Origin: a virus
Virus record (IMG/VR): IMGVR_UViG_3300033978_000457
Location: 1-64,000 of that record
Reading direction: 5' to 3' (one strand)
Length of the DNA stretch: 64,000 bases
Shown: positions 27,201-64,000 of the stretch, piece after piece
How the letters are laid out: each line of letters begins with the position of its first letter
How positions within the stretch are numbered: position 1 is the stretch's first letter
Made by a program: the position numbers and the translations under genes
Notes under the pieces: generated by a model
Seen by the model: only the letters and a program-made list of their open reading frames with translations
Databases searched by the model: none
Told to the model about the DNA's origin: nothing

Positions 27201-27508
27201 CTTCTGGGGTAACGACTATTAAACTTCCAAAAACTGCTACTCAATATGTTATGGAGAATGTAGAAGAGGGTAGATATGAGTTTGATATTCAAGCTATAGG
27301 TTTAACTGGAGCTGCGAGTACTCCTATATATACAAGTATTTTAGCTACTACTACTACTGTGCCTGGGTCTGTTAGCCAGCTTGGTGTGCCCAGAGGTGGT
27401 CAGTTTAGTACTTCGCCTACTTTAAACGGTAGAACAATTATAGCGCCTAATGATTATATTTTCAATGGCGCATCTGGGGCTAAAAAAGTTGTCTCAGGAG
27501 GAATTTAA
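24278..27508 (+). CDS. Tail tip / central fibre protein J-like (N-terminal hub and FN3 part)
   Basis: DLLSEGEIE, LSYPYSAY, DNPVW, CDELVPDGEGGFEPRFTC, AFGATSRGQAIRYAKW, LRPGSIIRVQD. Confidence 0.9.
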   Translation: MTFKRNTLIVYDLLSEGEIELVDGLSSIYLNKTPIVNSNKQHIVMNKVYSATTTAGSSNVVFDDDGLYPIDNVRPVRIQKAYKAAGSASASAGSTTVTTSAAFFESAMIATNTIASGGLYQKVRIPGAGPAGSEYVGEITAVASSTSATVEPAISTTISGAPITFDFFSWAIITAPGLTLVGPPPTPPVVPVTGTFYMDVGAAGIESNQTDSSVLNYKFVKANFRPGTMHQEPIVNIGGFSNASFGRAIGTELKQYTEFYGQKLVWGKDKTAAEYEEAGGEITISSGTDLPETCDRLLLTITTQRLDSIKPSNQEKGDAGLTVLVFFDYRIGAGDWSTEQVFGPKPNELASQYAWVWNGKQSPNAGNTSGDISGRDPETSDHEFSFNIDQYKPFTSFRVRVRRVTPVNYKMGNFEYSNSTTVKLIQGFIEDRLSYPYSAYAAVMLDSQEFAGNVPERMYHCYGIRCEVPTNYMTRRESSDGVANYKRNVSSGAQETTYQPWNGLFRTVYCDNPVWVLRTLLLQNRFGLGNWLSADQINKYSFYSLARRCDELVPDGEGGFEPRFTCGIYLTQATEAYKVIKDFCSIMFSIPYWMDGQLVIEADKPGEPIYTFTKGNIIGGIFNYEGTGNKTRPNQIAVTYNDRKNLYTQAVELVDDVDDMINKNRVYTEEAVAFGATSRGQAIRYAKWKLLTSKLNKEIISFKTGENAGFLRPGSIIRVQDADRYRIRNSGRVISSTINSIVLDKAVNLGSGTYTLHVLVAGSAAYLAQPSATISSIPYVRGDIIAGIDTEQEAADLVDDSGNQVVVIWSPDTHLENKVVTTTAGNGINTLSIHPAEFSAAPQVEFIWALTNTLNNSTVEGSSKLYRILGIAEDAPGSYAISAAEHFNQKFDELDETYLSEASDVIPFDAVIPLITNFTASLKTKNSNNSAEDSVNTITALDIVLRWTAPTNIAVSGTTSLYNDLKEYKLNITGPSGVTTIKLPKTATQYVMENVEEGRYEFDIQAIGLTGAASTPIYTSILATTTTVPGSVSQLGVPRGGQFSTSPTLNGRTIIAPNDYIFNGASGAKKVVSGGI

Positions 27509-30500
27509 TGCCAACTCCTTTTACCGAGTTAACTATATCAAATATTACAGCTGGATCATCAGCTTACCTAGCTTACGACGTAAGCTCTGGGTTTAGGCTA
27601 TTTCAAACTGTAGTAGATGGCTCAGTAGAATATCTAAGAGATATTACTTCTGCTAGTCCACCTTCAGCCACAAGAACTTTAGCTGATAATGCTACTGTAC
27701 GTGGTAATATTATAAGTATTCCTGGTACTACTGTTGCACCTGCTTCAGTTACTGTAGGCAGGCGCTATAAAATATTAACTTTAGGAGATACTCCGGCAAC
27801 CTATGCTACTATGGGCGCCACTACTACAACTGCAGGCGCTTTTGAAATTGGTAGACAGTACATTATTAGAGCTTTAGGAGATACAGACTATACATTAATA
27901 GGAGCTTCAACTAATACTGTAGGTATAATATTTACAGCTACTGGACCAGGTGTAGGTACAGGTACTGCATATGAACAATATTTTACTCCTACTGTAGCGG
28001 GTAGCGGTAGTGGTACGTTAGTATCTGATTTTTCTGAAGTGGGGGCTCAAGTAGGTCAACCTATAAAAATTAATACTACTTGGTGTACTATAACTAGTTA
28101 TATATCTGATAGAGCTATATCTGTAGATAGAATTGTTACTGCCGGTCCAATTGTTTATCCCTCTTATTATCCGAATGTTGTAGAAGATACAATCATAGGC
28201 CTTATATCAGTTTTTAGTATTAATGCCACGACTATAGAGCTTAACAAAACTTACCAAATTCTAACGGTAGGTACTACAAACTTTATGACCTCTTTTGGCG
28301 CTGTAGACAATAATATTGGAACAGAATTTACAGCTAATGCTGCTGGTACCGGAGGCTCTGGCACAGGCACAGTAACTTACTATACTATCGAACGTTACTT
28401 TACAGCCTACAACACTATACCAACAGGATCTTTAGCAGTATCTGGTACATTCCCTGGAGAGTCTCGAATCGATAGCGGTTCTGGAGATTTATACATATGG
28501 AGTGGTACAACTTGGGTAGCTTCAGGTGGTAGTGCTAGTGAGGTTATCGTAAGTGCTACAGCACCAGGTGCTCCAACTGTAGGTATGCAGTGGTTTAGAA
28601 CTACAGATAGCCGCATGTTTTTGTGGAATGGCACTAGTTGGGTACAAACAATCCCAGGAGTTAGCGGAACTCGTTTAATTGATACTTCTACAGTAAATGG
28701 TCTATATGAAGGTGAAACTGTTATTGACTCCACAGATGGTAATCTGTATATTTGGGAGTTGGGTGTATGGACATTAGTTTTAGAGAGTGTATCTTTTGAT
28801 CTAAGTAATCAAGTACACGGGTTACCTTCTGCTTTTGATGGTACTGCAGTAGATTATACGGGTGCTAATACTCAGATCAGTGTTTTTTCTGGATCTACAG
28901 ATGTTACATCTTCATGGACTATTGTTAAAAGTGAGAGCGCTGGTATAACTGGAACTATAACTACCCCGGGTCCCCATAAACTGTACACAGTTACATCTCT
29001 AACAGCAGACGTTGCCACAGTAGAATTTACGGCTTCTAAAGTAGGATATGCTGATCGCATAGCCACGTTTACTGCTATTCGTGTTCGCGCAGGCGAGGGT
29101 GGAGTCGGTACTGTATACCAAGTTATACCAAGTGTAGGGGCTCTTAAGTACAATTTAACAGATTATACTCCTTCGTCTGTTGTGTTTGATAGTTTTGTTA
29201 CAACTGGGGCAAGCGTGCCGGCGGCTTATGCTGGCCGCTTTAAAATTTATTATAGTACTAACGGTATTGATTATACCTTAAACTATACTAGCGCGTCGGA
29301 TGAGTCTACAAAATCATACACCCTACCTGTGGCAAATATAAAGTTTGTCAAGGCGGAACTATTTCTTGCAGGGGGTACTACAACTCTGCTAGATTACGAG
29401 AATATTCCTGTCATTATTGACGGTGCTCCAGGCTCGCAAGGCTTGCAGGGTACTTTTGGCAACCAAGGATTACAAGGTAATATTGGCAACCAAGGATTAC
29501 AAGGTACTCTTGGTACTCAAGGAATACAAGGTACTTTAGGTACTACAGGAGCCCAAGGTACTCAAGGCGGTCAAGGTGGGCAAGGTAGACAAGGTACTTT
29601 AGGTACTACAGGAGCTCAAGGTACCCAAGGAGGTCAAGGTGGGCAAGGTAGACAAGGTACTTTAGGTACTACAGGAGCTCAAGGAGCACAAGGTACTTTT
29701 GGTCCGCAAGGTCAGCAAGGTATAGTAGGAACTATAGGTGCCCAAGGTGCGCAGGGCGTACTTGGCTCTCAAGGTCAACAAGGTGTAACAGGACCATTAG
29801 GTGCGCAAGGTAACTCAGGCGGCCAAGGCCCTACAGGCCAACAGGGCATTACTGGTCCTTTAGGAGCTCAAGGTATTGGTGGTACGCCAGGACCTCAAGG
29901 AGCACAAGGTAACCCAGGCACCACAGGTCCTCAGGGTTTACAAGGTACATTTGGTCCTACAGGCCAGCAAGGCATTACAGGTAGTGTAGGTGGCCAAGGT
30001 CTGCAGGGGGGGCTTGGACCTGTAGGTCAACAAGGTATTACAGGTACTACAGGAGCTCAAGGAGCTCAAGGAAACCTAGGGCCTGCAGGTCAGCAAGGTA
30101 TTACAGGCACTACAGGAGCTCAAGGAGCACAAGGTACTGGCGGTTCTCAAGGTAGACAAGGCACAATAGGTATAGACGGGGCTCAAGGTACCCAAGGCGG
30201 TCAAGGTGGACAAGGTAGACAAGGTACTTTAGGTAGTACAGGAGCCCAAGGAGCTCAAGGTACTTTTGGTGCACAAGGACAGCAAGGTATAGTAGGAGCT
30301 ACAGGTACTCAAGGTGCTGCAGGTACTCAAGGACCAACAGGACAACAAGGTATTACAGGTACTCCAGGAGCTCAAGGAGCCCAGGGTACTGGCGGTTCTC
30401 AAGGTAGGCAAGGTACTACCGGCCCTGTAGGAGCGCAAGGTACTGAAGGAACTCCCGGACCGCAAGGGCAACAAGGCTTGTCTGGACCGAACGGACCTGC

Positions 30501-32670
30501 CGGGGCTCAAGGTACGGCTGGTCCAAGCGGTCCAGGTGGAGCGGTAGGAGCTGCAGGAGCGACTGGTCCTACTGGTGCTAGCTTATACGTATATTACTCT
30601 TCTTCCGCTATAACTACACTAGATACGTTCCCTACTCCGGCTGATTGGTTGTCGGGGGCAACTTATGCATTTAACGCTATAGTTTATTATAGCAATGCTA
30701 TATACGCTATGAGAAATATTAGCGGTATAACTGGGCTAACTACTAATCCTTTCTCAGATACTGCTAACTGGTTGCAGGTTTTTGCTAATGGAGTAGCTAT
30801 AGGAGAAACAGTAACTGCTCCTAATTTTGTAATTGGTAAAACTTATAGAATTACTGCAACAAATGGTACAAACTTTGGAAACTTTGGATCGAGTAGCTCT
30901 GCTCCAGGTACATATTTTACGTGTACTGCTGGAACTCAAAATGGAGCAGGTACTGCTCAATTAATTATACACACAAAACTTACGCCAACCATATACGTTG
31001 GCGGCGAAAGCAGATTTAGGTGCGTAGATAATAATCACTACTGGTACGCCAATGCCACACAGGTTTCTGGAGGTGCGCAAGCTGTAAAATGGACTATATT
31101 TGCTACAGAAACTAACTCATCAAACATTGGAACTGAAGACTTTGGAAACCCAATACTATCTATTGGTGAAACTGGGGCTCCCGGAGCTGCCGGACCTCCA
31201 GGGGCTTCTGGGGCACAAGGGCCTCCTGGTGTACAAGGTAATCCAGGACCACCTGGTGCCCAAGGTACAGCAGGTACTCAAGGTGCTCAAGGTAGACAAG
31301 GTACTGGAGGTGCTACAGGCTCTCAGGGTACTACGGGTACTCAAGGTTCTCAAGGTGGTCAAGGTACTGGAGGTGCTACAGGAGCTCAAGGTACAGCGGG
31401 TACTCAAGGTGCTCAAGGTAGACAAGGTACTTTAGGTACTACAGGAGCTCAAGGTACAGCGGGTACTCAAGGTGCTCAAGGTAGACAAGGTACTTTAGGC
31501 GCTACAGGCTCTCAGGGTATCACTGGTACTCAGGGCTCCCAAGGTGGCCAAGGTACTGGAGGTGCTACAGGCTCTCAGGGTACCACTGGTACTCAGGGCT
31601 CCCAAGGTGGTCAAGGTACTGGAGGCGCTACAGGCTCTCAAGGTACAGCTGGTACTCAAGGTGCTCAAGGTAGACAAGGTACTGGAGGTGCTACAGGCTC
31701 TCAAGGTACGACTGGTACTCAAGGTTCTCAAGGTGGTCAAGGTACTGGAGGTGCCACAGGCTCTCAAGGTACAGCTGGTACACAGGGCTCTCAAGGTGGC
31801 CAAGGCATTGGAGGTGCTACAGGCTCTCAAGGTACAGCTGGTACTCAGGGCTCTCAAGGTGGCCAAGGTACTGGAGGTGCCACAGGCTCTCAAGGTACAG
31901 CTGGTACACAGGGCTCTCAAGGTGGCCAAGGTACTGGAGGTGCCACAGGCTCTCAAGGTACAGCTGGTACACAGGGCTCTCAAGGTGGCCAAGGTACTGG
32001 AGGTGCCACAGGCTCTCAAGGTAGCGTAGGTGTTACTGGTTCTCAAGGTGGGCAAGGTGTCTCAGGCCCAACAGGTAACCCAGGACCTCCAGGTACACCA
32101 GGCCCTGAAGGTGCTCAAGGTGGTGCTGGGCCAAATGGAGGTCCAGGCCCTCCAGGTGCCAATGGACCCCCTGGTGGGGTTGGCCCGCCTGGGGGTACAG
32201 GAGGCGCAGGCCCTCCAGGTCCCAATGGACCTCCTGGTGGGGTTGGCCCGCCTGGAGGTACAGGAGCTTCAGGGCCGCCCGGCCCAGCCGGTTCAGCCGG
32301 AAATGCTGTAGCTTTTGATGTGACTGGTGCGTATAACAATGCATCTGGAACAGCATCAAGATCTGACTATATAAGAACATATAGAGGCACTAACCTAGTT
32401 AAACAAGGAGACGTTTACTGGAATGTTACAAATGGAGAAGTATGGCAGTGGCAATTAGCCGATGATAGCACTGGCAACGATCTAAACCTTACAAAATTAG
32501 TGGACTGGATTGATGCCGATAGCGTGAAAGTTACCTCACTATCCGCTTTAACAGCTACAATAGGTCTGCTAAGAACAGCATCAAGTGGTGCAAGAACTGA
32601 AATCGAGGATAACGTGATAAGAGTGTACGATTCTAGTAACGTATTAAGAGTAAGAATGGGAATTTGGTAA
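27508..32670 (+). CDS. Collagen-containing fibre carrying a J-type C-terminus
   Basis: Two Gly-X-Y tracts; ends LSALTATIGLLRTASSGARTEIEDNVIRVYDSSNVLRVRMGIW; AGGAGG RBS. Confidence 0.85.
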   Translation: MPTPFTELTISNITAGSSAYLAYDVSSGFRLFQTVVDGSVEYLRDITSASPPSATRTLADNATVRGNIISIPGTTVAPASVTVGRRYKILTLGDTPATYATMGATTTTAGAFEIGRQYIIRALGDTDYTLIGASTNTVGIIFTATGPGVGTGTAYEQYFTPTVAGSGSGTLVSDFSEVGAQVGQPIKINTTWCTITSYISDRAISVDRIVTAGPIVYPSYYPNVVEDTIIGLISVFSINATTIELNKTYQILTVGTTNFMTSFGAVDNNIGTEFTANAAGTGGSGTGTVTYYTIERYFTAYNTIPTGSLAVSGTFPGESRIDSGSGDLYIWSGTTWVASGGSASEVIVSATAPGAPTVGMQWFRTTDSRMFLWNGTSWVQTIPGVSGTRLIDTSTVNGLYEGETVIDSTDGNLYIWELGVWTLVLESVSFDLSNQVHGLPSAFDGTAVDYTGANTQISVFSGSTDVTSSWTIVKSESAGITGTITTPGPHKLYTVTSLTADVATVEFTASKVGYADRIATFTAIRVRAGEGGVGTVYQVIPSVGALKYNLTDYTPSSVVFDSFVTTGASVPAAYAGRFKIYYSTNGIDYTLNYTSASDESTKSYTLPVANIKFVKAELFLAGGTTTLLDYENIPVIIDGAPGSQGLQGTFGNQGLQGNIGNQGLQGTLGTQGIQGTLGTTGAQGTQGGQGGQGRQGTLGTTGAQGTQGGQGGQGRQGTLGTTGAQGAQGTFGPQGQQGIVGTIGAQGAQGVLGSQGQQGVTGPLGAQGNSGGQGPTGQQGITGPLGAQGIGGTPGPQGAQGNPGTTGPQGLQGTFGPTGQQGITGSVGGQGLQGGLGPVGQQGITGTTGAQGAQGNLGPAGQQGITGTTGAQGAQGTGGSQGRQGTIGIDGAQGTQGGQGGQGRQGTLGSTGAQGAQGTFGAQGQQGIVGATGTQGAAGTQGPTGQQGITGTPGAQGAQGTGGSQGRQGTTGPVGAQGTEGTPGPQGQQGLSGPNGPAGAQGTAGPSGPGGAVGAAGATGPTGASLYVYYSSSAITTLDTFPTPADWLSGATYAFNAIVYYSNAIYAMRNISGITGLTTNPFSDTANWLQVFANGVAIGETVTAPNFVIGKTYRITATNGTNFGNFGSSSSAPGTYFTCTAGTQNGAGTAQLIIHTKLTPTIYVGGESRFRCVDNNHYWYANATQVSGGAQAVKWTIFATETNSSNIGTEDFGNPILSIGETGAPGAAGPPGASGAQGPPGVQGNPGPPGAQGTAGTQGAQGRQGTGGATGSQGTTGTQGSQGGQGTGGATGAQGTAGTQGAQGRQGTLGTTGAQGTAGTQGAQGRQGTLGATGSQGITGTQGSQGGQGTGGATGSQGTTGTQGSQGGQGTGGATGSQGTAGTQGAQGRQGTGGATGSQGTTGTQGSQGGQGTGGATGSQGTAGTQGSQGGQGIGGATGSQGTAGTQGSQGGQGTGGATGSQGTAGTQGSQGGQGTGGATGSQGTAGTQGSQGGQGTGGATGSQGSVGVTGSQGGQGVSGPTGNPGPPGTPGPEGAQGGAGPNGGPGPPGANGPPGGVGPPGGTGGAGPPGPNGPPGGVGPPGGTGASGPPGPAGSAGNAVAFDVTGAYNNASGTASRSDYIRTYRGTNLVKQGDVYWNVTNGEVWQWQLADDSTGNDLNLTKLVDWIDADSVKVTSLSALTATIGLLRTASSGARTEIEDNVIRVYDSSNVLRVRMGIW
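29422..30582 (+). repeat. Collagen Gly-X-Y tract 1 (~129 triplets)
   Basis: G-X-Q/G-X-T rich; 63-nt period visible at 29539/29602/29665. Confidence 0.9.
31165..32307 (+). repeat. Collagen Gly-X-Y tract 2 (~127 triplets) with 63-nt tandem repeat core
   Basis: GATGSQGTAGTQGSQGGQGTG units starting 31561, 31624, 31687, 31750, 31813, 31876, 31939; GPP-rich ends. Confidence 0.9.
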
Positions 32671-34698: not shown

Positions 34699-34735
34699 AA
34701 AAAACCCCCGCAGCTCTGGCTGCGGGGGTTTCTTT
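34699..34735. terminator. Bidirectional intrinsic terminator between convergent arms
   Basis: AAAAAACCCCCGCAGC-TCTG-GCTGCGGGGGTTTCTTT. Confidence 0.9.
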
Positions 34736-35357
34736 ATGTGAATATTGTATCGAACCTTAAGACTTCTGCTGGTGTATAATCAAAACTTCGCAAAAACTCC
34801 TCAACTAAAGGGTATTTAGGATAAGTATGCTCAACTACTATCGTGGGCTTATAATGCTCAATAATACCTTGCGCACCCTCTAAGACCTCTAGCTCATGTC
34901 CTTCTACATCTAAGTGTATTAAATCCACTTCCATAGGTACGATATGGTCTAACTCTACAGATATACAGTCTTCGCCAGAAACTATAAAGTATCCGCCACT
35001 GTTTGTATTATCTGCAGATTTTAAACTGTGCTGACTATTTCTATTAGATAAAGATACTTGTAATTTTATTACATTAGGCTCTTCTACGTTATCAATTAAA
35101 CAAGCAAAATTTCTAGCTTCTGGCTCAAATGCCATTACCTTATAAAAAGCATACGCATATTGCTTAGTGTAGAATCCAGCATGTGCTCCGGCAATGATAC
35201 ATGTACGCCTTTGCTTTACATGTTTTGTGACTATAGAAGGTAGATGCGGCTCCATACACATCCACTCCCACGCCCCTTTGTCATCTTTAGGCCAGAGCCA
35301 AGTATTTTTATCTCTAGTGTAGAAACCACCACTTCTGTACTCTACATCTTTTCTCAT
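34734..35357 (-). CDS. FkbM-family methyltransferase
   Basis: IIAGAHAG, VMAFEP, VDLIHLDVEGHELEVLEGA...PTIVVE. Confidence 0.85.
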   Translation of the reverse strand: MRKDVEYRSGGFYTRDKNTWLWPKDDKGAWEWMCMEPHLPSIVTKHVKQRRTCIIAGAHAGFYTKQYAYAFYKVMAFEPEARNFACLIDNVEEPNVIKLQVSLSNRNSQHSLKSADNTNSGGYFIVSGEDCISVELDHIVPMEVDLIHLDVEGHELEVLEGAQGIIEHYKPTIVVEHTYPKYPLVEEFLRSFDYTPAEVLRFDTIFT

Positions 35358-56204: not shown

Positions 56205-56297
56205 TGGTACTTCCGGCGGGAGTCGAACCCGCATTTTGCGGCTATCTACCGCTAAACACTTTATAAGGGTGGTAGTTTACCATTAACCTACGGAAGC
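56205..56297 (-). tRNA. tRNA with UAU anticodon (Ile by anticodon) and long variable arm
   Basis: Acceptor GCTTCCG/CGGAAGT-A-CCA; D arm GGTT/AACT; loop CT-TAT-AA; V arm GCGG-TAGATAG-CCGC; T arm GCGGG-TTCGACT-CCCGC. Confidence 0.8.
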
Positions 56298-56369: not shown

Positions 56370-57611
56370 TTAAAAAGAGTGCCAATTTTCAAACCCTTTA
56401 ATATAGAGCTTTTTAAATTTATCTATATCATAGAAGTATTCTTTACCAGTTTTTGGCTCACTAGACAAGTCCATATTATTAATTGAGAATGGAACGCTAG
56501 CATGAACATACCAATCCTCATAGCTTTTATCTTCATAGAATGATATATCAGAGACGACTAGTTTATAGTTCTTAGATTTTAAATATTCTCTAGACTTCTC
56601 ACGTATTTCTTGATTTTCATAATGATTGTGCTCAAAAGTAATAGCTTTAAATTTATATTGATCAAATGGAATTTTTAATAGAACATCCATAGAGAGACTC
56701 TGCGGAGGGTCTATATCTATTTGTAGGTAATCTATCACTTTTGGCGCATTTTGCTCAGAAAGTAATTGAACATAGTCTATTTTAAGAGCATCTGTTTGTA
56801 GACACAAATTATCTCTTAAAGCTCTAAATCTTTGTGTTGGACTAAATGCTAAATCTATAGAGATGCCCTTCCAATCAAACTCTCTCTCTAATAAACAAGT
56901 ATTGCTGTGCAGCTCTGGGTCACCACTACCTATTTCTAAATAAAACCCATCTTTTTTTCCTTTAGCTACTAGAAGTGCAAATAAATCTTGGTGAGATTGA
57001 GCATAGCTTTTTTGTATATTTTCCGCGCCCTCAAAAGTTCTTTTTAGTGCAGAAGCTACTAAAGGGCTGTGCCTTGTATAAGCATTAGGGTTACCTACCT
57101 GAAGAACATTATATTTTATGAGGTTTTTGTAGAAAGGAGAAAATTTATCACTATGTACATCCAAACAATGAATTATTTCTCTAGACTCGTCTGTATTGCC
57201 TATCCACCAAGCAGATACTGCTTTTTCAAAAAATAGTCTATAATCTTTCTGCTCACATTTATCAAAACCTACAGAAGCAACCATGTAACAGTCGTGCCAT
57301 CTTTGCTTTTGTTCGTAAAATTGAGATAGAATAAAATAAGGTTCTGGGTTGTTGGGGTCTAGAGCTACTGCTCGTTTTAATAGGCCTTCTACTGTGCCCT
57401 CTCTACCGCCCGCTGCCATAAAGTTTCTAGCTGCCCCGCTTATAGCTGTATATACTTTTTTACGGTCATTGCCCGCAATATCTGCTGCTTTTAGATAGTG
57501 CGTTACTGCAGAGGCTAGCTGCCCTATTTTTTCATAATAGTTGGCTAAATTTATGTTTGCCTCAAAACTGTATGGGCTACGTATGTATGTATTAATTAAA
57601 TCTTGGGTCAT
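56370..57611 (-). CDS. TPR + FkbM-like methyltransferase domain protein
   Basis: N-terminal TPR-like helices (AVALDPNNPEPYFILSQFY); YAQSHQD...GFYLEIGSG...SNT..LE...WKGISID...IDYLQIDID...ITFEH. Confidence 0.75.
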   Translation of the reverse strand: MTQDLINTYIRSPYSFEANINLANYYEKIGQLASAVTHYLKAADIAGNDRKKVYTAISGAARNFMAAGGREGTVEGLLKRAVALDPNNPEPYFILSQFYEQKQRWHDCYMVASVGFDKCEQKDYRLFFEKAVSAWWIGNTDESREIIHCLDVHSDKFSPFYKNLIKYNVLQVGNPNAYTRHSPLVASALKRTFEGAENIQKSYAQSHQDLFALLVAKGKKDGFYLEIGSGDPELHSNTCLLEREFDWKGISIDLAFSPTQRFRALRDNLCLQTDALKIDYVQLLSEQNAPKVIDYLQIDIDPPQSLSMDVLLKIPFDQYKFKAITFEHNHYENQEIREKSREYLKSKNYKLVVSDISFYEDKSYEDWYVHASVPFSINNMDLSSEPKTGKEYFYDIDKFKKLYIKGFENWHSF

Positions 57612-58566
57612 ATAAACATTCCTCAGGCATTTTTAAAATGAAGGCACTATTGTCTTGGAATCCGAAACTTATTAGAACATTCCCGTTTTTAAAAGCTAAT
57701 CCACAGCAAAATTCTATTTCACAATCCATAAAAGAAAAGCATTTCTTTGATACGCTAACTACTTTTAAATCTTTGTCGTAAAAAACTATTCTATGTCTAT
57801 ACTTAGCGTTTTTGCTGCCAAGCTCACTATTAAATAGGTATACTTCGTGAGTTATACTTACATATCCGTCTCTAAACGGTACTACATGGGAGCTTCCTCT
57901 TAAATCAGCACATGTTTCTATATTGCTATGGTGTATAGCTACTTGTTTAGTTATGCCATCTTTATACTCTACTATTTCAGTAGGACTATGCCATTTTACA
58001 TAAGTTATTTCTGGCTTACCTAAAACTACTGCCCAGTTCTTTTCACAGTAAGATTCTACTAGCCCAGGTGTAGGTATTCTTTGTCTAGATACTTCCTTAC
58101 ATACTCCATCGATATACTCTAACTCTGAGAGTTCCATACGACCTTCACCGTTAGTTGTAGTATCCCTTCTAACGCCAGTTATATAAAATTTACCCTCGTG
58201 TTTAAACAACCTACCATCCTCTAGGCCAACGAACTCCCATATAGGGTCCTTGTCAAGGGCGCTAGTATCTATTTTAGAATAATTTAAAATATTTAGATCA
58301 TCGTCTAACTCTGCAAAATAATTGAAGGTTCTTAAGTACGGGTCTGCTTCTGGGTGTAAATACTGTAACGGGCCATATAAATGGTAAAATTTTTGACTTT
58401 CGCTATGATATAGAATATAATTCAATACTCTAATGTTGACGTAAGTTTTATCCCCATCAACGAACACAGAGGGGTTCATAATACCCATCCCATTAGTTTC
58501 TTGGCTGGGCAGAATTAATTGCTTTACCGTTCCCCCATTGTCTAGGGCTAACTGTGCTAAGTTCAT
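57592..58566 (-). CDS. Beta-propeller glycoside hydrolase/phosphorylase-like protein (GH130/GH43-like)
   Basis: NPSV, GLEDGRLF, EKNW, LRGSS, YRHR, IEFCCGL, ISFGFQD. Confidence 0.65.
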   Translation of the reverse strand: MNLAQLALDNGGTVKQLILPSQETNGMGIMNPSVFVDGDKTYVNIRVLNYILYHSESQKFYHLYGPLQYLHPEADPYLRTFNYFAELDDDLNILNYSKIDTSALDKDPIWEFVGLEDGRLFKHEGKFYITGVRRDTTTNGEGRMELSELEYIDGVCKEVSRQRIPTPGLVESYCEKNWAVVLGKPEITYVKWHSPTEIVEYKDGITKQVAIHHSNIETCADLRGSSHVVPFRDGYVSITHEVYLFNSELGSKNAKYRHRIVFYDKDLKVVSVSKKCFSFMDCEIEFCCGLAFKNGNVLISFGFQDNSAFILKMPEECLYDPRFN

Positions 58567-59300
58567 ATTGAAATCCTTTGTAAATCTATATTATTATTTT
58601 TCCACCAATTTAGTATAAACTCATGTGAGTCATGGTGTAGTGGGCCTTGTCCGTCATACATTACTAATTCTGTGCCTTTATATGTAGACTTGCAATTAAC
58701 TGTGTCTTCAACAAATAGTGGAAATATGTAAACATTACTATTACTTGGGTCAAGTATAACATTTTCTACTATAGGCAGAAATGATGTTTTTAAGTCTACA
58801 CAGAAATTATTAGGGGCTATTACATGCTGATCTATTACTTTCTTTGCGTAAGAACGCTTTACTATAAAAGCTGCAATACACCAATCATTCCAATTTCTAC
58901 TTCTTATCTTTGTAGGAGTTTCTAGCCCCTCTCCGACATTTACTAATTGTATTGCTTCCCAGTTCGTTGGTAATATACTAATAAACTCTTTTAAAGTAAA
59001 TTTCCAATAATCTAAAGTTTCAAAAGAAACATCGTCCTCCATTATTATACAGAAGTCGTCTTGGCAAGTATTATACCAATCGTATAAATTATAAAGGTGA
59101 GACGCTATAGGCCCATAGCTATTGCTATGTAGCGCCTGTAACGTCTCACCCTTTAAGCTAAAATCACTTGTCTCAAATCTTTCACAAATAATGAATTTAT
59201 AGTTATTAGTATATTTATTAATTTGTCTTACAAAATTATCGCGTCTGTCAGCAGACTCTCTTAGAGTTATAACTCTTATTGTAGGCAGATTATCTAACAA
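58563..59300 (-). CDS. Glycosyltransferase family 25-like
   Basis: VITLRESADRR, GPIASHL, IIMEDD, LPTNWEAIQL, AAFIVKRSYAKK; TTG start after AAGGA. Confidence 0.8.
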   Translation of the reverse strand: MLDNLPTIRVITLRESADRRDNFVRQINKYTNNYKFIICERFETSDFSLKGETLQALHSNSYGPIASHLYNLYDWYNTCQDDFCIIMEDDVSFETLDYWKFTLKEFISILPTNWEAIQLVNVGEGLETPTKIRSRNWNDWCIAAFIVKRSYAKKVIDQHVIAPNNFCVDLKTSFLPIVENVILDPSNSNVYIFPLFVEDTVNCKSTYKGTELVMYDGQGPLHHDSHEFILNWWKNNNIDLQRISI

Positions 59301-59314
59301 GTTATCCTTTGATT

Positions 59315-61471
59315 TTATGGTTTTTCTACTGCTTTTGCTGCTTCGGCTGCTGCAACTGCTGCTGCTTCTGCAGCTACTCTTGCTGCTTCTTCGGCTGCTG
59401 CAACTGCTGCTGCTTCTGCTTCTGCAGCTACTCGTGCTGCTTCTTCAGCTGCTGCAACTGCTGCTGCTTCTTCTGCCGCTTTTGCTGCTAAAGCTGCTTC
59501 TGCAGCTGCTACTTGTTCAGCTAGTGCTACTTCTGCGGCTATTCTAGCTGCTTCGGCCGCTTCTACTGCTGCTGCTTGTTCTGCTGCAATTCTTGCTTCT
59601 TCAGCTGCTCGTGCTGCTTCTTCGGCTGCTATTCTTGCTGCCTCGGCGGCTGCTACCTCTTCAGCGGCTACTCGTGCGGCTTCAGCTTCTGCTGCTAATC
59701 GTGCTGCTTCTTCGGCTGCTGTTGCCTCTTCAGCGGCTACTCGTGCTGCTTCAGCTTCTACCGCTAATCGTGCTGCTTCTTCGGCTGCTGTTGCCTCTTC
59801 AGCGGCTACTCGTGCTGCTTCAGCTTCTGCCGCTAATCGTGCTGCTTCTTCAGCTGCTATTCGTGCTGCCTCGGCTGCTGCTGCCTCTTCGGCGACTACT
59901 CGCGCTGCTTCGGCTTCTGCTGCTAATCGTGCTGCTTCTGCTAATGCTGCTTCTTCGGCTGCTATTCTTGCTGCCTCGGCGGCTGCTACCTCTTCAGCGG
60001 CTACTCGTGCGGCTTCAGCTTCTGCTGCTAATCGTGCTGCTTCGGCTTCTGCTGCTAATCGTGCTACCTCTTCAGCGGCTACTCGTGCGGCTTCAGCTTC
60101 TGCTGCTAATCGTGCTGCTTCGGCTTCTGCTGCTAATCGTGCTACTTCTTCGGCTGCTGCTTCTTCGGCTGTTATTCTTGCTGCCTCGGCGGCTGCTACC
60201 TCTTCAGCGGCTACTCGTGCGGCTTCAGCTTCTGCTGCTAATCGTGCTGCTTCGGCTTCTGCTGCTAATCGTGCTACTTCTTCGGCTGCTGCTGCTGCCT
60301 CTTCAGCGGCTACTCGTGCTGCTTCAGCTTCTGCTGCTAATCGTGCTGCTTCTGCTAATGCTGCTTCTTCGGCTGCTATTCTTGCTGCCTCGGCGGCTGC
60401 TACCTCTTCAGCGGCTACTCGTGCGGCTTCAGCTTCTGCTGCTAATCGTGCTGCTTCTTCGGCTGCTGCTGCCTCTTCGGCGGCTACTCGCGCTGCTTCG
60501 GCTTCTGCTGCTAATCGTGCTGCTTCTTCGGCTGCTATTCGTGCTGCCTCAACTGCTGCTGCTTCTTCGGCGGCTACTCGCGCTGCTTCTATAGCTACTC
60601 TTGCTGCCTCAACTGCTGCTGCTTCTTCAGCTGCTACACGAGCTGCTTCAACCGCCTCTAGTCGTGCTGCTTCTTCTGCTGCTATACGAGTTACTTCAGC
60701 AGCTGCTGCTTCTTCTGCTGCTACACGAGCTGCTTCAATTGCTGCTGCTACACGAGCTGCTTCAGCTGCTGCTGCTTCAGCTGCTGCACGTTCTTCAGCT
60801 TCTTTAGCAGCTTTCTTTTGTTGTTTTCGAGTTTCTGATTCTTCTACGTTTGCAGACTCAGCAACTTTTTTAGCTTCTTGAATAAGTTTTGTAGCAAAAG
60901 TTGATGCTTTTAAATCTGCCTCTTTTTTAAGAAAATCAGCTGCTTTTGCAACTAAATCAGCAGCTTCTTGTTTCCGCTCATTTATCTTAGCTAATAGGCC
61001 GCTAACCATCTTTTCTAGGTCGCGTACTTCTTCTAGTACTTCATTTGCTTTTAGAGTAGCTTTAGCTGCTTTATGAGTAACTTCTTCAATTTGTTTTTCC
61101 TTTTTATTTTCTTTGCTAAAATCTTCTTCTTCCATTTTTTTAGTTGGAGTATTGATGAACATATCTAATAAATTAAAAGGTTTTAAAATACCTTTACCGT
61201 CTAAGTATTGAACTGGCACAGTTAAAAATCCATTTGAATTTTGTACAGGAGCAGTTACTATGAACGCGGCATAAGCTTTTTTATTATCTGACTGAAATAA
61301 AATTGTATCTCCAACAAAAATATCTTCTTCGCTTAAAGAATTAAAGTCCTCATCTTTATGGTCTAAAAAAATAAAATTAGCTTCTTTTATTTCTGTTGCA
61401 TTTAGTCTAAAGGACCCAAGTCCTGGGTCTCCTGGGTTTATGTAGTCACTATATCTAAATAATCTTTTCAT
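59315..61471 (-). CDS. Protein with globular N-terminal domain and ~500-aa Ala/Glu/Arg helical repeat stalk
   Basis: N-terminal DPGLGSFRLN; AEAEAARLA/AEEAARVA repeats to the C-terminus. Confidence 0.8.
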   Translation of the reverse strand: MKRLFRYSDYINPGDPGLGSFRLNATEIKEANFIFLDHKDEDFNSLSEEDIFVGDTILFQSDNKKAYAAFIVTAPVQNSNGFLTVPVQYLDGKGILKPFNLLDMFINTPTKKMEEEDFSKENKKEKQIEEVTHKAAKATLKANEVLEEVRDLEKMVSGLLAKINERKQEAADLVAKAADFLKKEADLKASTFATKLIQEAKKVAESANVEESETRKQQKKAAKEAEERAAAEAAAAEAARVAAAIEAARVAAEEAAAAEVTRIAAEEAARLEAVEAARVAAEEAAAVEAARVAIEAARVAAEEAAAVEAARIAAEEAARLAAEAEAARVAAEEAAAAEEAARLAAEAEAARVAAEEVAAAEAARIAAEEAALAEAARLAAEAEAARVAAEEAAAAAEEVARLAAEAEAARLAAEAEAARVAAEEVAAAEAARITAEEAAAEEVARLAAEAEAARLAAEAEAARVAAEEVARLAAEAEAARLAAEAEAARVAAEEVAAAEAARIAAEEAALAEAARLAAEAEAARVVAEEAAAAEAARIAAEEAARLAAEAEAARVAAEEATAAEEAARLAVEAEAARVAAEEATAAEEAARLAAEAEAARVAAEEVAAAEAARIAAEEAARAAEEARIAAEQAAAVEAAEAARIAAEVALAEQVAAAEAALAAKAAEEAAAVAAAEEAARVAAEAEAAAVAAAEEAARVAAEAAAVAAAEAAKAVEKP
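59330..60800 (-). repeat. Degenerate tandem repeats encoding AEAARLAAE-type units
   Basis: Recurring GCTGCTAATCGTGCT and TCAGCGGCTACTCGTGC blocks on the plus strand. Confidence 0.85.
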
Positions 61472-61503
61472 GTTTTTCCTATAGATAATAAATTATCTCT
61501 TTG

Positions 61504-61659
61504 TCATACTATTCTTGAAAAATAAGTTCCGTTTTGTCCTATTAGCATAAACGGTGGAGAAGTGCCGCCACCACTTACAGGTAACTTACTAAATGGTAGT
61601 AAACCAGAAGGTAGTCTAGGAGGTAAGAAAAATCTAGGACGAAATACTCCGTTGCTCAT
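61504..61659 (-). CDS. Small Pro-rich hypothetical protein (51 aa)
   Basis: MSNGVFRPRFFLPPRLPSGLLP...; fills gap; read manually. Confidence 0.5.
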   Translation of the reverse strand: MSNGVFRPRFFLPPRLPSGLLPFSKLPVSGGGTSPPFMLIGQNGTYFSRIV

Positions 61660-61679
61660 CGTATTCTACCCTTCTTTAT

Positions 61680-62150
61680 TTACGAAACTTCTTCGAACCA
61701 AATAGTTCCGCTTACGGTAATACTGTCTGCTGGTGTAGTTTCAAGTTCCAGTGTCCAGCGATCTCCAGCTTTTATATATGGGCGCGTTTCGGGCGTATAT
61801 ATCATCATATACGGAACACGAACGTTCCAAACATGGTCTTCTAATTCTGTAATAGTACCAGCCGTCATTTTAGTTGTGTTATTTACTTCGATAGTAGCAC
61901 CACATGCTGTGTCGTCTACACCTAGAGGGGCAGCAGTAGGCACAGTGCCACCGCTACCTGTAGTGGATCCAACACCTCGGTTACAGGTAAGGACAAGGCC
62001 TTCTTCCTGTGCATCCCCTACTTCCGTTGATTGGGAAATAGACCAAGCATGTACTTTTATTGGTTTATTTGTTCCCGCTAAGACTTCAAAGAAATCTTGC
62101 TGAGCGGTAACTGCTATTGATTTAAAAACTGCAGTATACATTCTTCCCAT
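61680..62150 (-). CDS. Putative virion beta-sandwich protein
   Basis: Thr/Gly/Val-rich beta pattern ending GTIWFEE; in operon with collagen gene. Confidence 0.5.
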   Translation of the reverse strand: MGRMYTAVFKSIAVTAQQDFFEVLAGTNKPIKVHAWSISQSTEVGDAQEEGLVLTCNRGVGSTTGSGGTVPTAAPLGVDDTACGATIEVNNTTKMTAGTITELEDHVWNVRVPYMMIYTPETRPYIKAGDRWTLELETTPADSITVSGTIWFEEVS

Positions 62151-62154
62151 ATTT

Positions 62155-62910
62155 TTACCTCATTAGTAAATGTTGAAATACATTATTAATTCTTGCCTCA
62201 ATTGGCAGCCCAAATTTTTCTTGCCCAGTGTCTCTCAGGACACAGACTACAGATGCCCAACTCTCATTACCCGCATTTTGCCCAGTGGTTGACGCAGCTA
62301 TATCAACAGCTCCAGAAGTCCAATTTACGCTCATTAAACCTACACGAGAATCAGCCGTCTCTACAATACTTGACTGAATAAAATTATTTACAGATGCAAT
62401 GGTCCAAGCAGTTGTCAAACTATTTCCTGCGGCGCCTCCAGCAGCAACAACAACAGCTCCAGTTGTTGTTGGTGTTATACTAGGAGGATTTACTCTAGAA
62501 GAGCCTGCCCCTGCAGAACCTGCAGTAGCCGTTCCATTAAATGGTTGAGTTAAACTAATTCCTCGCCAAACATGAATAGCATAGGCTCCCCCATCTTCAA
62601 TATTTCCAGTTGGTCCTATTAATACTTGTGTATCAGGCGTTGCAGGCATAAATTTGTAATATAAACTTAACCTTGTATTATTATTATCAGTGCCATTTGC
62701 GGTACCAATTAATATATATCCTGAAGTTGCAATGCTAGGCGTTGCAGGCGTACCTCCAGATGCATAGTTAATAGCAACAATAACTAAATCATTTGCAGAA
62801 ACTCCAGCATCGCTGCCCCCAGTTAGACCGGAGTTGAGGGCAACTGTTGTGTCTCCAGTAGTTGCCCCTAAGAACCCTGCGGTTTTGCCTCCTACGTATG
62901 AAATGGCCAT
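62155..62910 (-). CDS. Putative virion/fibre accessory protein
   Basis: MAISYVG...NDLVIVA...LSLYYKF...VWRGI; small-residue-rich. Confidence 0.55.
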   Translation of the reverse strand: MAISYVGGKTAGFLGATTGDTTVALNSGLTGGSDAGVSANDLVIVAINYASGGTPATPSIATSGYILIGTANGTDNNNTRLSLYYKFMPATPDTQVLIGPTGNIEDGGAYAIHVWRGISLTQPFNGTATAGSAGAGSSRVNPPSITPTTTGAVVVAAGGAAGNSLTTAWTIASVNNFIQSSIVETADSRVGLMSVNWTSGAVDIAASTTGQNAGNESWASVVCVLRDTGQEKFGLPIEARINNVFQHLLMR

Positions 62911-62913
62911 TTA

Positions 62914-63999
62914 TTACGTTCCAATCAGAGTTACTTTTAGCCCTTTTGCCGTGCCGTCACCAATTTGATCAACATCTATAGTAATTTCAGCATCGTCTGC
63001 TAATGATGTATCTGATATTACTGCTGCGGTAGCAGCAGTAGTTGAGGTTTTTTCTGTATTATCAATAGTTAGTTTAGTTGATAATATACTAGTGGCTTCT
63101 TCGTTGACATCTACTGTAAAAATATTACCAGATGTTTGGGCTACGTTTAAATTTCCTCTAATACTTGTAAGTGTCATTGCAAAAGGCATACGGAAAGTAA
63201 CTTTACTTGTACCTGCTGTAATTGCTGTAGTTTCATCACTAGCTGCAATTATGAGTATTTTAGAGTTTACAGGTCCTTGGGTGCCTTGCGCACCTGTAGT
63301 ACCTTGAATGCTTGCTCCTGTAGTACCTTGAATACCTTGAGTACCAATTATGCCTTGAATACCTTGACTACCAGCACCTGTAATGCCTTGAGTACCTTGC
63401 GCACCTGTAATACCCTGAATACCAGCACCTGCAGTGCCTTGAGTACCTTGAGTACCAGCACCTGCAATACCCTGAATACCTTGAGCACCTGCAGTGCCTT
63501 GAGTACCTTGACTACCAGCACCTGCAATACCCTGAATACCTTGAGTACCGGCACCTGTAATACCTTGAGTACCTTGAGTACCTTGAGTACCCGTGTTACC
63601 TGTTATACCTTGAGTACCTGTATTGCCTGTTGTACCCTGAGTACCTTGAGCACCAGTGTTACCTGTTGTACCCTGAGTACCAGTGTTACCAGTGTTACCT
63701 GTTGTACCCTGAGTACCTTGACGGCCTTGAATACCTTGAGCACCTTGGACACCTTGAGTACCCTGTGGACCTTGAGTGCCTTGTATACCTTGAGAACCAG
63801 TTATACCCTGAGTACCGGCACCTGTAATACCTTGAATACCTTGAGCACCCTGAGAACCAGTTATACCTTGAATACCTTGAGTACCAGCGCCTGTAGTGCC
63901 TTGAATACCTTGAGTACCTTGAATACCTGTAATACCTTGACTACCAGCACCTGTAATACCTTGGGTGCCTTGAGTACCAGCGCCCATAGTACCTTGCAT
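62914..63999 (-). CDS. Collagen-like fibre protein with C-terminal globular domain (probably 5'-partial)
   Basis: G-X-Q/G-X-T tract with GAG interruptions running to the window edge; C-terminal AASDETT...VTFRMPFA...ITIDVDQIG...GLKVTL. Confidence 0.85.
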
Positions 64000-64000
64000 A

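Follow-up and report, generated by a model that had tools for sequence, protein, structure and literature searches.

What do the products of a cluster of sugar-enzyme and methyltransferase genes act on when the cluster closes a run of phage fibre genes? The question arises from a stretch of 64,000 nucleotides (hereafter the window) that begins a viral record of 100,125 bp. The source phage is a freshwater T5-like siphovirus, and positions 56370-64000 are the downstream end of its fibre-gene island. A preliminary description had read this run as a self-contained system that glycosylates and O-methylates the phage's own collagen fibres. The proposed enzyme families broadly withstood the analysis, as did the co-occurrence of the propeller and the TPR-enzyme with collagen genes, whereas the parts assigned to the stalk and beta-rich proteins, to a second FkbM gene and to a literal animal GT25 analogy did not. 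A propeller and a TPR-enzyme travel together beside proline-free collagen in hundreds of aquatic phages, and this phage therefore probably decorates its own fibres. The best reading, which we favour with modest confidence, is cytoplasmic O-glycosylation and methylation of these fibres.

All seven ORFs of the run lie on the minus strand where they were first placed (Table 1), in the 5' to 3' order collagen, two small proteins, 718-aa protein, glycosyltransferase, propeller and TPR-methyltransferase. As originally noticed, the three enzyme ORFs overlap one another (by 4 and 20 nt), and the remaining intergenic gaps measure 3-14 nt, except for 208 nt between 61471 and 61680. The collagen gene at 62914 is truncated by the window end, and the earlier reader saw an incomplete gene. 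In the full record, the fibre run upstream of the 591-aa collagen comprises a 950-aa protein, a 105-aa protein, a 583-aa collagen (67906-69657) and a gene similar to those for assembly of L-shaped tail fibres. The island is surrounded by minus-strand replication genes (ligase, DNA-binding protein, helicase) and lies outside the main virion operon, which spans 1-33 kb, a placement that tells against fibre decoration. The claim of a self-contained system is not supported; a separate FkbM, nucleotidyltransferase and HAD cluster lies at 82.3-85.4 kb of the record, outside the window. The FkbM gene at 34734-35357, put forward as a possible participant, adjoins ribonucleotide reductase, and no equivalent was found in the related loci.

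Table 1. Genes at the downstream end of the fibre island, in order of position
Feature	Position	Strand	Product
TPR + FkbM-type SAM methyltransferase	56370-57611	-	413 aa
GH130/GT108-type five-bladed beta-propeller	57592-58566	-	324 aa
Divergent GT25-like GT-A glycosyltransferase	58563-59300	-	245 aa, TTG start
Fibre-type Ala/Glu/Arg-rich protein (ALA718)	59315-61471	-	718 aa
156-aa protein, phage-only family	61680-62150	-	no Pfam or PHROG match
251-aa beta-rich protein, phage-only family	62155-62910	-	no Pfam or PHROG match
Collagen-like fibre protein	62914-64689 in full record	-	591 aa; C-terminal 361 aa inside window

Pfam scores were not enough to classify the three enzymes, which were assigned through homologues and predicted folds; their families are roughly those first guessed, with the window proteins themselves under the Pfam cut-offs. 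The propeller scores 16.7 bits against Pfam GH130 (PF04041; cut-off 26), and a profile of the phage propeller clade had no match among PDB sequences. It has more than 4175 homologues, some of which carry PF04041 in precomputed annotation (a few at 51-76% identity). Its AlphaFold model (pLDDT 83, pTM 0.86) predicts a five-bladed propeller fold nearest to GH130/GT108 structures: the best 43 Foldseek matches listed are GH130, GH130-like or GT108 chains (E 1.4e-9 to 1e-6), and GH43 enters only at E 7.6e-6. The best match is a beta-1,2-oligomannan phosphorylase (E 1.4e-9, TM 0.62/0.67), and the model also matches the Uhgb_MS mannoside synthase and Leishmania GT108 mannosyltransferases. Six residues (E116, D117, R119, R133, R134 and D135) do not vary among 23 sequences, and the weak match to Pfam covers residues 104-133. 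Judged by its modelled fold, the propeller is a candidate beta-mannosyl transferase or phosphorylase; beta-1,2-specific members of GH130 combine phosphorylase activity with that of a GDP-mannose transferase (PMC12814180).

The GT25-like enzyme scores 18.0 bits against Pfam GT25 (PF01755; cut-off 24), while domains 29-37% identical to it reach 27.1, 38.6 and 49.7 bits. It also matches phrog_2835, 'glucosyltransferase' (9.4e-30), and a GT-A DxD-like motif (E88-D89-D90), R19 and H68 are invariant in 12 aligned sequences. In the third enzyme, the N-terminal part (residues 1-180) is made up of five to six TPR hairpins (Pfam TPR_17, 33.8 bits; cut-off 24.4), followed at about 200-400 by a class I methyltransferase domain. 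This C-terminal half has no Pfam methyltransferase match, PF05050 included; full-length homologues (36-41% identity) and distant matches to the C-terminal half carry PF05050. In the model (pLDDT 90), the methyltransferase domain (residues 203-372) superimposes on the SAM methyltransferase 1wg8 (Z 15.1, rmsd 2.7, 152 residues) and on TrmK with bound SAH (Z 13.6). The glycine-rich SAM motif LEIGSGDP is conserved, with E226, G228 and P232 invariant. FkbM-family members are O-methyltransferases of small molecules and sugars. No membrane-spanning segment was found in any of the three enzymes.

The propeller and the TPR-fused enzyme are a conserved gene pair, which is new; our literature search found no paper describing such a module. 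Among 80 IMG/VR loci with a propeller homologue, 78 have a TPR homologue, usually overlapping the 3' end of the propeller gene. In a second, metagenomic set, 66 loci extend far enough downstream, and 58 of these have a TPR homologue. GT25 is present in a minority only (14/80 and 12/80). The co-occurrence with G-X-Q/T collagens proposed for all three enzymes held for the propeller and the TPR-enzyme, GT25 being the exception. The TPR end is constant and the fused enzyme varies from locus to locus: 72 scanned TPR partners carry FkbM (19), DUF6445 (14), Methyltransf_24 (9), GT25 (6) and GT2 (3) domains and, more rarely, GT17 (2), radical SAM/SPASM (2) and WavE (1). In some phages GT25, TPR and methyltransferase form a single polypeptide. 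The propeller ORF is itself extended in 14 loci, and the seven extensions scanned encode FkbM plus radical SAM, radical SAM/SPASM, GT17 plus methyltransferase, or DUF6445. Members of the propeller clade come almost exclusively from viral sequence, with at least 586 confirmed IMG/VR stretches as against 13 prokaryotic loci in 185,579 species (one genome each); of these 13, at least 12 lie on contigs assembled from metagenomes.

The partners are also predicted to bind each other. Modelled together with TPR residues 1-190, the propeller reached an ipSAE of 0.91 (best control, 0.00), and the runs share at least 83% of contacts with a partner pLDDT of at least 85. The ipSAE mark used was reached by 58/80 solved complexes and 2/110 mismatched pairs, counts that are only rough because our own alignments were used. 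Further, across 72 diverged proteins, conservation is higher at the predicted TPR contact positions than elsewhere in the domain (0.64 vs 0.49, p = 0.0025). These data point to docking of the TPR domain on the propeller.

The link of this pair to collagen is statistical and partial. In 54 non-redundant loci, collagen repeats occur in 26/101 genes flanking the pair and in 29/494 other genes (Fisher p = 3e-8); in the second set the figures are 13/83 and 23/311 (p = 0.03). A collagen ORF is present in 46 of 59 non-redundant loci of at least 12 kb (78%). Collagen density is highest just upstream of the propeller gene, where collagen genes occupy 36% of the first 2 kb, compared with 16% at -10 kb and 0.5-10% downstream. 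In the Synechococcus phage DSL-LC02, the pair lies between genes annotated 'collagen-like protein' and 'tail fiber protein'. The pair is also present in S-SCSM2R, a Synechococcus phage in culture. The collagens of these loci are of one kind, with a median Pro content of 0.9% in the first set and 0.8% in the second; in the first set X is Thr in 34% of triplets and Y is Gln in 60% or Thr in 22% (G-T-Q type). A collagen gene lies directly beside the pair in only about a third of non-redundant loci, and the other upstream neighbours are mixed, including some tail-fibre/spike families, ferrochelatase and portal. In the window, the collagen gene nearest to the propeller gene is 4.3 kb away, with four genes between.

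The two island collagens of this phage, near proline-free with G-[T/A/I/S]-[Q/T] triplets, belong to the same type. The 591-aa collagen exceeds the Pfam Collagen cut-off (PF01391, 27.2) with 85.7 bits for its window part and 137.3 bits as a whole. It has 113 triplets (X = T/I/A, Y = Q/T, Pro 0.4%, Lys 0), a C-terminal globular domain of tail-protein type, and matches to phrog_819, 5073 and 6320, which are tail or tail-fibre families. The claim that all three collagens of the window are proline-poor applies to the gene at 62914 (Pro 0.4% of X+Y) and to that at 1-2799 (0.8%), but not to the main tail-fibre collagen at 27508-32670 (10.5%). None of the phage's four collagens has Lys in its triplets, no island protein scanned matched a Pfam oxygenase family, and no hydroxylase is encoded in the window. 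Something other than hydroxylysine must therefore serve as acceptor, and with Lys missing from the triplets of 4/4 collagens the suggested analogy with animal GT25 enzymes, which place galactose on hydroxylysine, does not apply literally.

The 718-aa protein between collagen and enzymes consists of an N-terminal fibre module of about 100 aa followed by about 600 aa of Ala/Glu/Arg-rich repeats, which we read from their composition as a probable helical stalk. It contains 281 A, 130 E and 45 R, and beyond residue 120 is mostly A, E, R and V; its gene holds tandem DNA repeats of 27-105 nt. The N-domain is found in 74 proteins, in up to eight copies each, and its profile picks up an internal domain of the 583-aa collagen (E 5e-10). 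The nearest ESM Atlas clusters of the 156-aa and 251-aa proteins are unnamed and 80-96% and 93-96% viral, respectively. The stalk and the two small proteins had been counted as parts of the system; they fall outside the conserved module because none has a homologue in the first 80 related loci, with a single match to the 718-aa protein in the second set.

On this basis, a route can be proposed in which the three enzyme genes would act as a translationally coupled operon ending the fibre island, and their soluble products would work in the cytoplasm of the infected cell. The propeller would be the constant core; its closest solved relatives transfer beta-mannose, with mannose-1-phosphate or GDP-mannose as donor. 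By docking on the propeller through its first two TPR repeats, the methyltransferase would reach the growing glycan as a tailoring enzyme; in other phages this adaptor bears different methyltransferases, or else glycosyltransferases, DUF6445 or radical-SAM domains. The GT25-like enzyme may add a further sugar, possibly the first. It is the only candidate first enzyme here and is missing from most related loci; to our knowledge, the solved GH130 and GT108 enzymes use sugar acceptors, not proteins. The acceptor would most likely be a Thr/Ser hydroxyl within the triplets of the phage's own collagen fibres, and the product a short O-glycan that contains mannose and is methylated. We infer the donor sugars, the acceptor residue and the order of steps, and the glycan might stabilise the triple helix, shield the virion or otherwise alter its surface.

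Could the enzymes instead serve, in the course of infection, to remodel a glycan of the host surface (LPS core, capsule, S-layer or EPS)? Such remodelling could block superinfection or keep progeny off cell debris, and adjacency to fibre genes would then reflect a shared, variable host-range island. The best-known role of GT25, and the one given in Pfam's family description, is LPS/LOS biosynthesis; the TPR adaptor can also bear WavE or GT2 domains, which are typical of the synthesis of envelope glycans, and the non-collagen neighbours of the pair are heterogeneous. We nevertheless consider a host target rather unlikely, as it leaves the collagen gradient towards the propeller gene and the single collagen type unexplained, and the propeller clade is nearly missing from cellular genomes, the home of envelope pathways. 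The missing membrane segments also speak against it, though LOS GT25 enzymes are soluble too. A virion target other than collagen, such as capsid, tail-tube or other fibre proteins, as with mycobacteriophage glycosyltransferases, would make collagens frequent neighbours only because all these genes sit in fibre islands. This possibility, which we judge decidedly unlikely, must contend with the 78% of longer loci that have a collagen gene, all of the proline-free Thr/Gln-rich type. It draws on the two-thirds of non-redundant loci in which a non-collagen gene, sometimes of a tail-fibre/spike family, directly adjoins the pair, and on the window itself, where the Ala/Glu-rich stalk protein and two small proteins, and no collagen, immediately precede the enzyme genes; these three are not conserved with the pair.

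The remaining alternatives dispense with glycan synthesis. The pair might be a chaperone for fibre assembly or trimerisation, or might methylate protein directly, for example at Gln/Thr of the G-x-Q triplets. TPR domains often serve as adaptors for chaperones, Y is Gln in about 60% of triplets, the TPR adaptor bears methyltransferases of many unrelated families, and in most loci the pair itself lacks a recognisable initiating glycosyltransferase. Against this very improbable role stand the invariant E-D-x-R motif that the propeller retains where the GH130 profile aligns, its fusion or pairing with true GT25, GT2 and GT17 domains, and the activity of FkbM members on small molecules and sugars. 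Lastly, tight coupling, gene fusions and the predicted complex all tie the propeller to biosynthetic tailoring enzymes, and its linkage to fibre genes argues against a purely catabolic role. We accordingly find it hardly credible that the propeller is a phosphorylase or hydrolase of host mannosides that feeds sugar phosphates to the phage or clears a glycan barrier, with unrelated auxiliary metabolic genes as neighbours, even though most characterised GH130 enzymes are phosphorylases or hydrolases (PMC12814180).

Decoration of the phage's own fibres, the favoured reading, has several partial parallels. The Thr-rich collagen-like exosporium proteins BclA of Bacillus anthracis/cereus and BclA3 of Clostridioides difficile are glycosylated, the latter by SgtA, and the BclA glycan ends in anthrose, an O-methylated sugar. 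The phage system resembles these in its proposed pairing of a Thr-rich, bacterial-type collagen devoid of hydroxyproline with dedicated cytoplasmic glycosyltransferases encoded nearby, and its set of glycosyltransferase and methyltransferase genes recalls the methylated BclA glycan. It differs in that BclA and BclA3 belong to the Firmicutes spore surface and have G-P-T triplets, whereas the phage proteins are fibres with near Pro-free G-T-Q triplets, and in its GH130/GT108-type propeller and (predicted) TPR-docked tailoring enzymes. Mycobacteriophage glycosyltransferases, which are classical GTs, reportedly decorate the phages' own virion proteins in the cytoplasm, their targets being capsid and tail-tube proteins that carry Ser/Thr-rich tracts at the C terminus. 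That system is not known to involve a collagen, propeller, TPR adaptor or methyltransferase module, all four of which occur here.

The animal collagen galactosyltransferases COLGALT1/2 (GT25) glycosylate hydroxylysine, and Mimivirus L230 is a collagen lysyl hydroxylase and glucosyltransferase, so that a virus modifies its own collagen-like proteins. A GT25-type enzyme associated with collagen triplets is common to these and the present phage, but the phage collagens lack Lys in the triplets and the window lacks a hydroxylase. With GH130/GT108 enzymes, the phage propeller shares the predicted five-bladed fold and, in the blade that aligns, an acidic motif that is conserved, and these relatives can make beta-mannosides from Man-1-P or GDP-Man (PMC12814180). 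In contrast, it is only 10-17% identical in sequence to the solved enzymes, and its clade is almost virus-only and nearly always accompanied by a TPR-enzyme partner. Finally, the TPR-methyltransferase resembles OGT and SPINDLY in joining an N-terminal TPR superhelix to a Rossmann-type transferase domain, although its catalytic domain is a methyltransferase and not GT-B, and its TPR is predicted to hold a partner enzyme instead of, or besides, the substrate. OGT and SPINDLY are also the top Foldseek matches of the whole model, with the TPR part carrying the match (TM 0.19-0.33).

The record, an IMG/VR virus genome of 100,125 bp with a completeness rating of 96%, contributes its bases 1-64000 to the window and opens with a siphovirus-type virion operon; T5-like phages have large terminases 52% identical to the one it encodes. 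Contigs of several lake-water metagenomes contain the window stretch letter for letter, and contigs from four lake-water sequencing runs show identical low-depth copies, with assemblies breaking in repeats; megablast with the window as query gave no match among 50,697 phage records. Public short-read assemblies break within the Ala/Glu repeat of the 718-aa protein and within a collagen repeat (63270-64000), where many unrelated contigs stack up; repeat lengths in the record are to be taken with caution.

The gene island under study lies on the minus strand and is surrounded by replication genes: upstream lies a helicase-like gene, and the downstream genes encode an NAD-ligase, a DNA-binding protein and a PC4-like protein. 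Intergenic gaps within the run are -1 to 41 nt, except for 208 nt ahead of the 718-aa gene, and the overlaps among the three enzyme genes reported in the preliminary description are indeed present, measuring 4 and 20 nt. Directly after the last enzyme gene is a tRNA-Ile gene (anticodon UAU, 93 nt), beside which stands a near-consensus promoter-like site, TTGACA-17-TATACT. The 950-aa protein is without Pfam or PHROG match, and its translation has a recurring N-T-A-T-x-L-T-type motif.

Features of the record, in its own coordinates; L002 and L003 denote further segments of the record
Feature	Position	Strand	Place or content
Virion operon	1-33 kb	+	Portal, prohead protease/major head, major tail protein, tape measure, J-like protein, 1720-aa collagen-bearing tail fibre
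Fourth collagen-bearing gene	1-2799	+	Open at window start
tRNA-Ile (UAU)	56205-56297	-	After last enzyme gene
Promoter-like site	56345-56317		Beside tRNA-Ile
Gene resembling L-shaped tail-fibre assembly genes	69657-70010	-	First of run in transcription order
583-aa collagen	67906-69657	-	Second of run
Internal module copy of 583-aa collagen	L002:8278-8640		Profile E 5e-10
105-aa protein		-	Third of run, between 583-aa collagen and 950-aa protein
950-aa protein, no family	64731-67583 (L002:4731-7583)	-	Between the two island collagens
591-aa collagen	62914-64689	-	Gene cut by window end
251-aa, then 156-aa protein		-	Next in run after 591-aa collagen
718-aa Ala/Glu/Arg repeat protein	59315-61471	-	After 156-aa protein
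Three enzyme genes	56370-59300	-	Last in run
Second sugar-related cluster	82319-85351 (L003:2319-5351), 82.3-85.4 kb	-	FkbM methyltransferase (54.7 bits), NTP_transferase-type sugar-phosphate nucleotidyltransferase gene, HAD_2 hydrolase, two unknown genes

The enzyme families proposed from the sequence alone agree broadly with homologues, folds and motifs, although Pfam by itself is weak for all three. A propeller model built from 23 homologues (pLDDT 83) matches the folds of beta-1,2-mannoside phosphorylases, the mannoside synthase Uhgb_MS and Leishmania GT108 mannosyltransferases, with best matches at E 1e-9 and TM 0.62-0.67, and E116-D117-x-R119 is invariant in the propeller alignment. Enzymes of GH130 with beta-1,2 specificity can also use GDP-mannose as mannose donor (PMC12814180). 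Against PDB sequences, single-sequence phmmer searches with the three enzymes returned matches to TPR only, and the propeller profile returned none. The propeller has more than 4175 homologues, counted as metagenome sequence clusters, a few of which are annotated as GH130, and a metagenome scan for close relatives returned homologues only 43-53% identical. The clade is nearly restricted to viral sequence. A cellular survey of one genome per prokaryote species (185,579) yielded 13 propeller-clade loci, of which metagenome-assembled contigs account for at least 12, and the propeller occurs in only 3 of 50,697 phage records, so that it is almost missing from cultured phages.

The GT25-like glycosyltransferase matches phrog_2835, is 29-37% identical to domains exceeding the Pfam GT25 cut-off and has an invariant EDD motif. 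The TPR protein was modelled at pLDDT 90; because TPR proteins, OGT and SPY among them, dominate the whole-model Foldseek matches, VIA-align was needed for the methyltransferase domain, and the C-terminal half aligns to class I SAM methyltransferases (Z 15.1). An FkbM domain is present in homologues of this protein. No membrane segments were found in any of the three enzymes. The nearest relative is 96% identical to the window in the propeller, 93% in the TPR-methyltransferase and only 67% in the glycosyltransferase, a hint that a recombination boundary separates the glycosyltransferase and propeller genes.

The propeller and the TPR protein form a conserved pair. Of the 80 viral loci in the first set, all with a homologue of the propeller, 78 also encode a TPR-protein homologue, usually overlapping the propeller stop codon. 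The second set comprises 80 metagenome loci, and of the 66 among these having enough downstream sequence, 58 have the partner. Across 72 partners scanned, the N-terminal TPR part is conserved and the fused enzyme varies, being most often FkbM (19), DUF6445 (14), Methyltransf_24 (9) or GT25 (6), and more rarely GT2 (3), GT17 (2), radical SAM/SPASM (2) or WavE (1). Some phages encode GT25, TPR and methyltransferase as a single polypeptide. The propeller ORF itself is extended in 14 loci, and the seven extensions scanned carry FkbM with radical SAM, radical SAM/SPASM, GT17 with methyltransferase, or DUF6445. This last domain (PF20043), the second commonest on the TPR adaptor, also occurs as a fusion with GT25 and with the propeller.

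A complex between the propeller and TPR residues 1-190 is predicted with an ipSAE score of 0.91; the best of three controls scored 0.00. Among solved complexes 58 of 80 reach the mark for this score, as do 2 of 110 mismatched pairs, counts that apply only roughly here because our own alignments were used. The runs share at least 83% of contacts at a partner pLDDT of at least 85. Over the 72 diverged partners, conservation is higher at TPR contact residues than elsewhere in the domain (0.64 vs 0.49, p = 0.0025); propeller-side contact residues are not more conserved (0.69 vs 0.67). Conserved residues of the predicted interface include G30, Q31, K41 and R70 in the TPR domain and H54, E56 and Q304-N306 in the propeller. 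The modelling supports binding between propeller and TPR domain, and we read the latter as a docking adaptor that would bring exchangeable tailoring enzymes together with an unchanging propeller. The predicted complex suggests a general plug-in mode of assembling glycan-tailoring enzymes and would extend the range of uses known for the GH130/GT108 fold.

Collagen genes are enriched beside the pair, an association that the preliminary description had proposed to test for its enzymes. Among the genes of 54 non-redundant loci, collagen repeats occur in 26 of 101 that directly flank the pair and in 29 of 494 that do not (p = 3e-8); for a second, non-overlapping set of 51 loci the counts are 13 of 83 and 23 of 311 (p = 0.03). 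A collagen ORF is present in 46 of the 59 pooled loci of at least 12 kb. Upstream of the propeller gene, collagen genes take up 36% of the bases in the first 2 kb and 16% at -10 kb; downstream the share is 0.5-10%. These collagens are of one type, with median proline contents of 0.9% and 0.8% in the two sets; in first-set triplets, Thr predominates at position X, with Gln (60%) or Thr (22%) at position Y. The proline poverty attributed earlier to all collagens of the window applies to the two island collagens, which match this type (0.4-0.5% Pro), but not to the main tail-fibre collagen (10.5% Pro). Lys is absent from the triplets of this phage's collagens. The open collagen-bearing gene at the window start has 61 proline-free triplets, and the C-terminus of its product matches phrog_11011 (long tail fibre distal subunit, 3.3e-35). 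In Synechococcus phage DSL-LC02, the pair is flanked by an annotated collagen-like protein and tail-fibre proteins. A cultured phage, Synechococcus phage S-SCSM2R on WH7803, carries the pair as well. The genomic link is partial: a collagen gene lies immediately beside the pair in only about a third of loci, the remaining neighbours are mixed, and a PHROG scan of 41 collagen-free upstream neighbours revealed no single family.

On the reading with most support, the three enzymes glycosylate and methylate the phage's own fibres in the cytoplasm. They would assemble, then methylate, a short mannose-containing O-glycan, the acceptor being most likely Thr or Ser of the proline-free collagens. The data show how the genes are arranged, the enzyme folds, the conserved pair and its genomic link to collagen; the complex is a prediction, and donor, acceptor, order of steps and benefit of glycosylation are what we infer. 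A broader proposal, which we hold only tentatively, is a mobile 'glycosylation hub' common to several unrelated aquatic phage lineages, in which a virus-specific GH130-like propeller and interchangeable tailoring enzymes, recruited by way of the conserved TPR adaptor, decorate proline-free G-T-Q collagen fibres, and methylated O-mannosyl-Thr replaces hydroxyproline in helix stabilisation, much like galactosyl-Thr in the cuticle collagen of Riftia; the methylated glycans would also determine fibre surface chemistry.

Several other roles were weighed. The enzymes might remodel a host surface glycan, which we regard as unlikely, and glycosylation of virion targets other than the collagens, considered alongside the mixed neighbours of many pairs, seems somewhat less likely still. 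A chaperone role or direct protein methylation, considered for a TPR protein with a methyltransferase half, is improbable, and a catabolic propeller, considered alongside the phosphorylase matches, very improbable. DNA glucosylation was rejected as the function of the enzymes, since neither a GH130-type propeller nor an FkbM methyltransferase nor the link to fibre genes fits it.

If the fibres are indeed glycosylated, this matters for host recognition, for losses by grazing and adsorption, and for recognition of phage particles. Virion glycosylation by phage enzymes is already known, as are glycosylated collagens of bacteria; we found no description in the literature of the propeller/TPR module or its collagen link, and a 2026 preprint notes GH130-like propellers in giant viruses only. 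The hub, if true, would be a post-translational modification system not described before, in which the GH130/GT108 fold would for the first time serve to modify protein. Aquatic phages commonly have collagen-like fibres that lack both proline and hydroxyproline, and an enzyme set travelling with exactly this collagen type offers a concrete, testable answer to how such fibres stay folded. With over 4000 propeller sequence clusters in metagenomes and so few phage records that contain one, a large part of phage biology is therefore unannotated.

The stalk and the two beta-rich proteins, which the preliminary description had listed in the same gene run, are not part of the conserved system: homologues of the 718-, 251-, 156- and 950-aa proteins are absent from the first 80 loci, and the 718-aa protein has one match in the second locus set. 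The 251- and 156-aa proteins fall in unnamed clusters that are 80-96% viral. The 718-aa protein is nevertheless fibre-like. Its N-terminal ~100 residues (61115-61471) are a recurrent module, present in up to eight copies per protein and in long proteins of up to 3793 aa; 19 of 74 proteins bearing it also have collagen tracts. With a profile of 265 domain copies, the module is also recovered inside the 583-aa collagen, a match that pairwise BLASTP missed. A further FkbM gene (34734-35357), once thought a possible participant, adjoins ribonucleotide reductase and has no counterpart in related loci. Outside the window, a second sugar-related cluster could, at a guess, provide activated sugars for the fibre enzymes.
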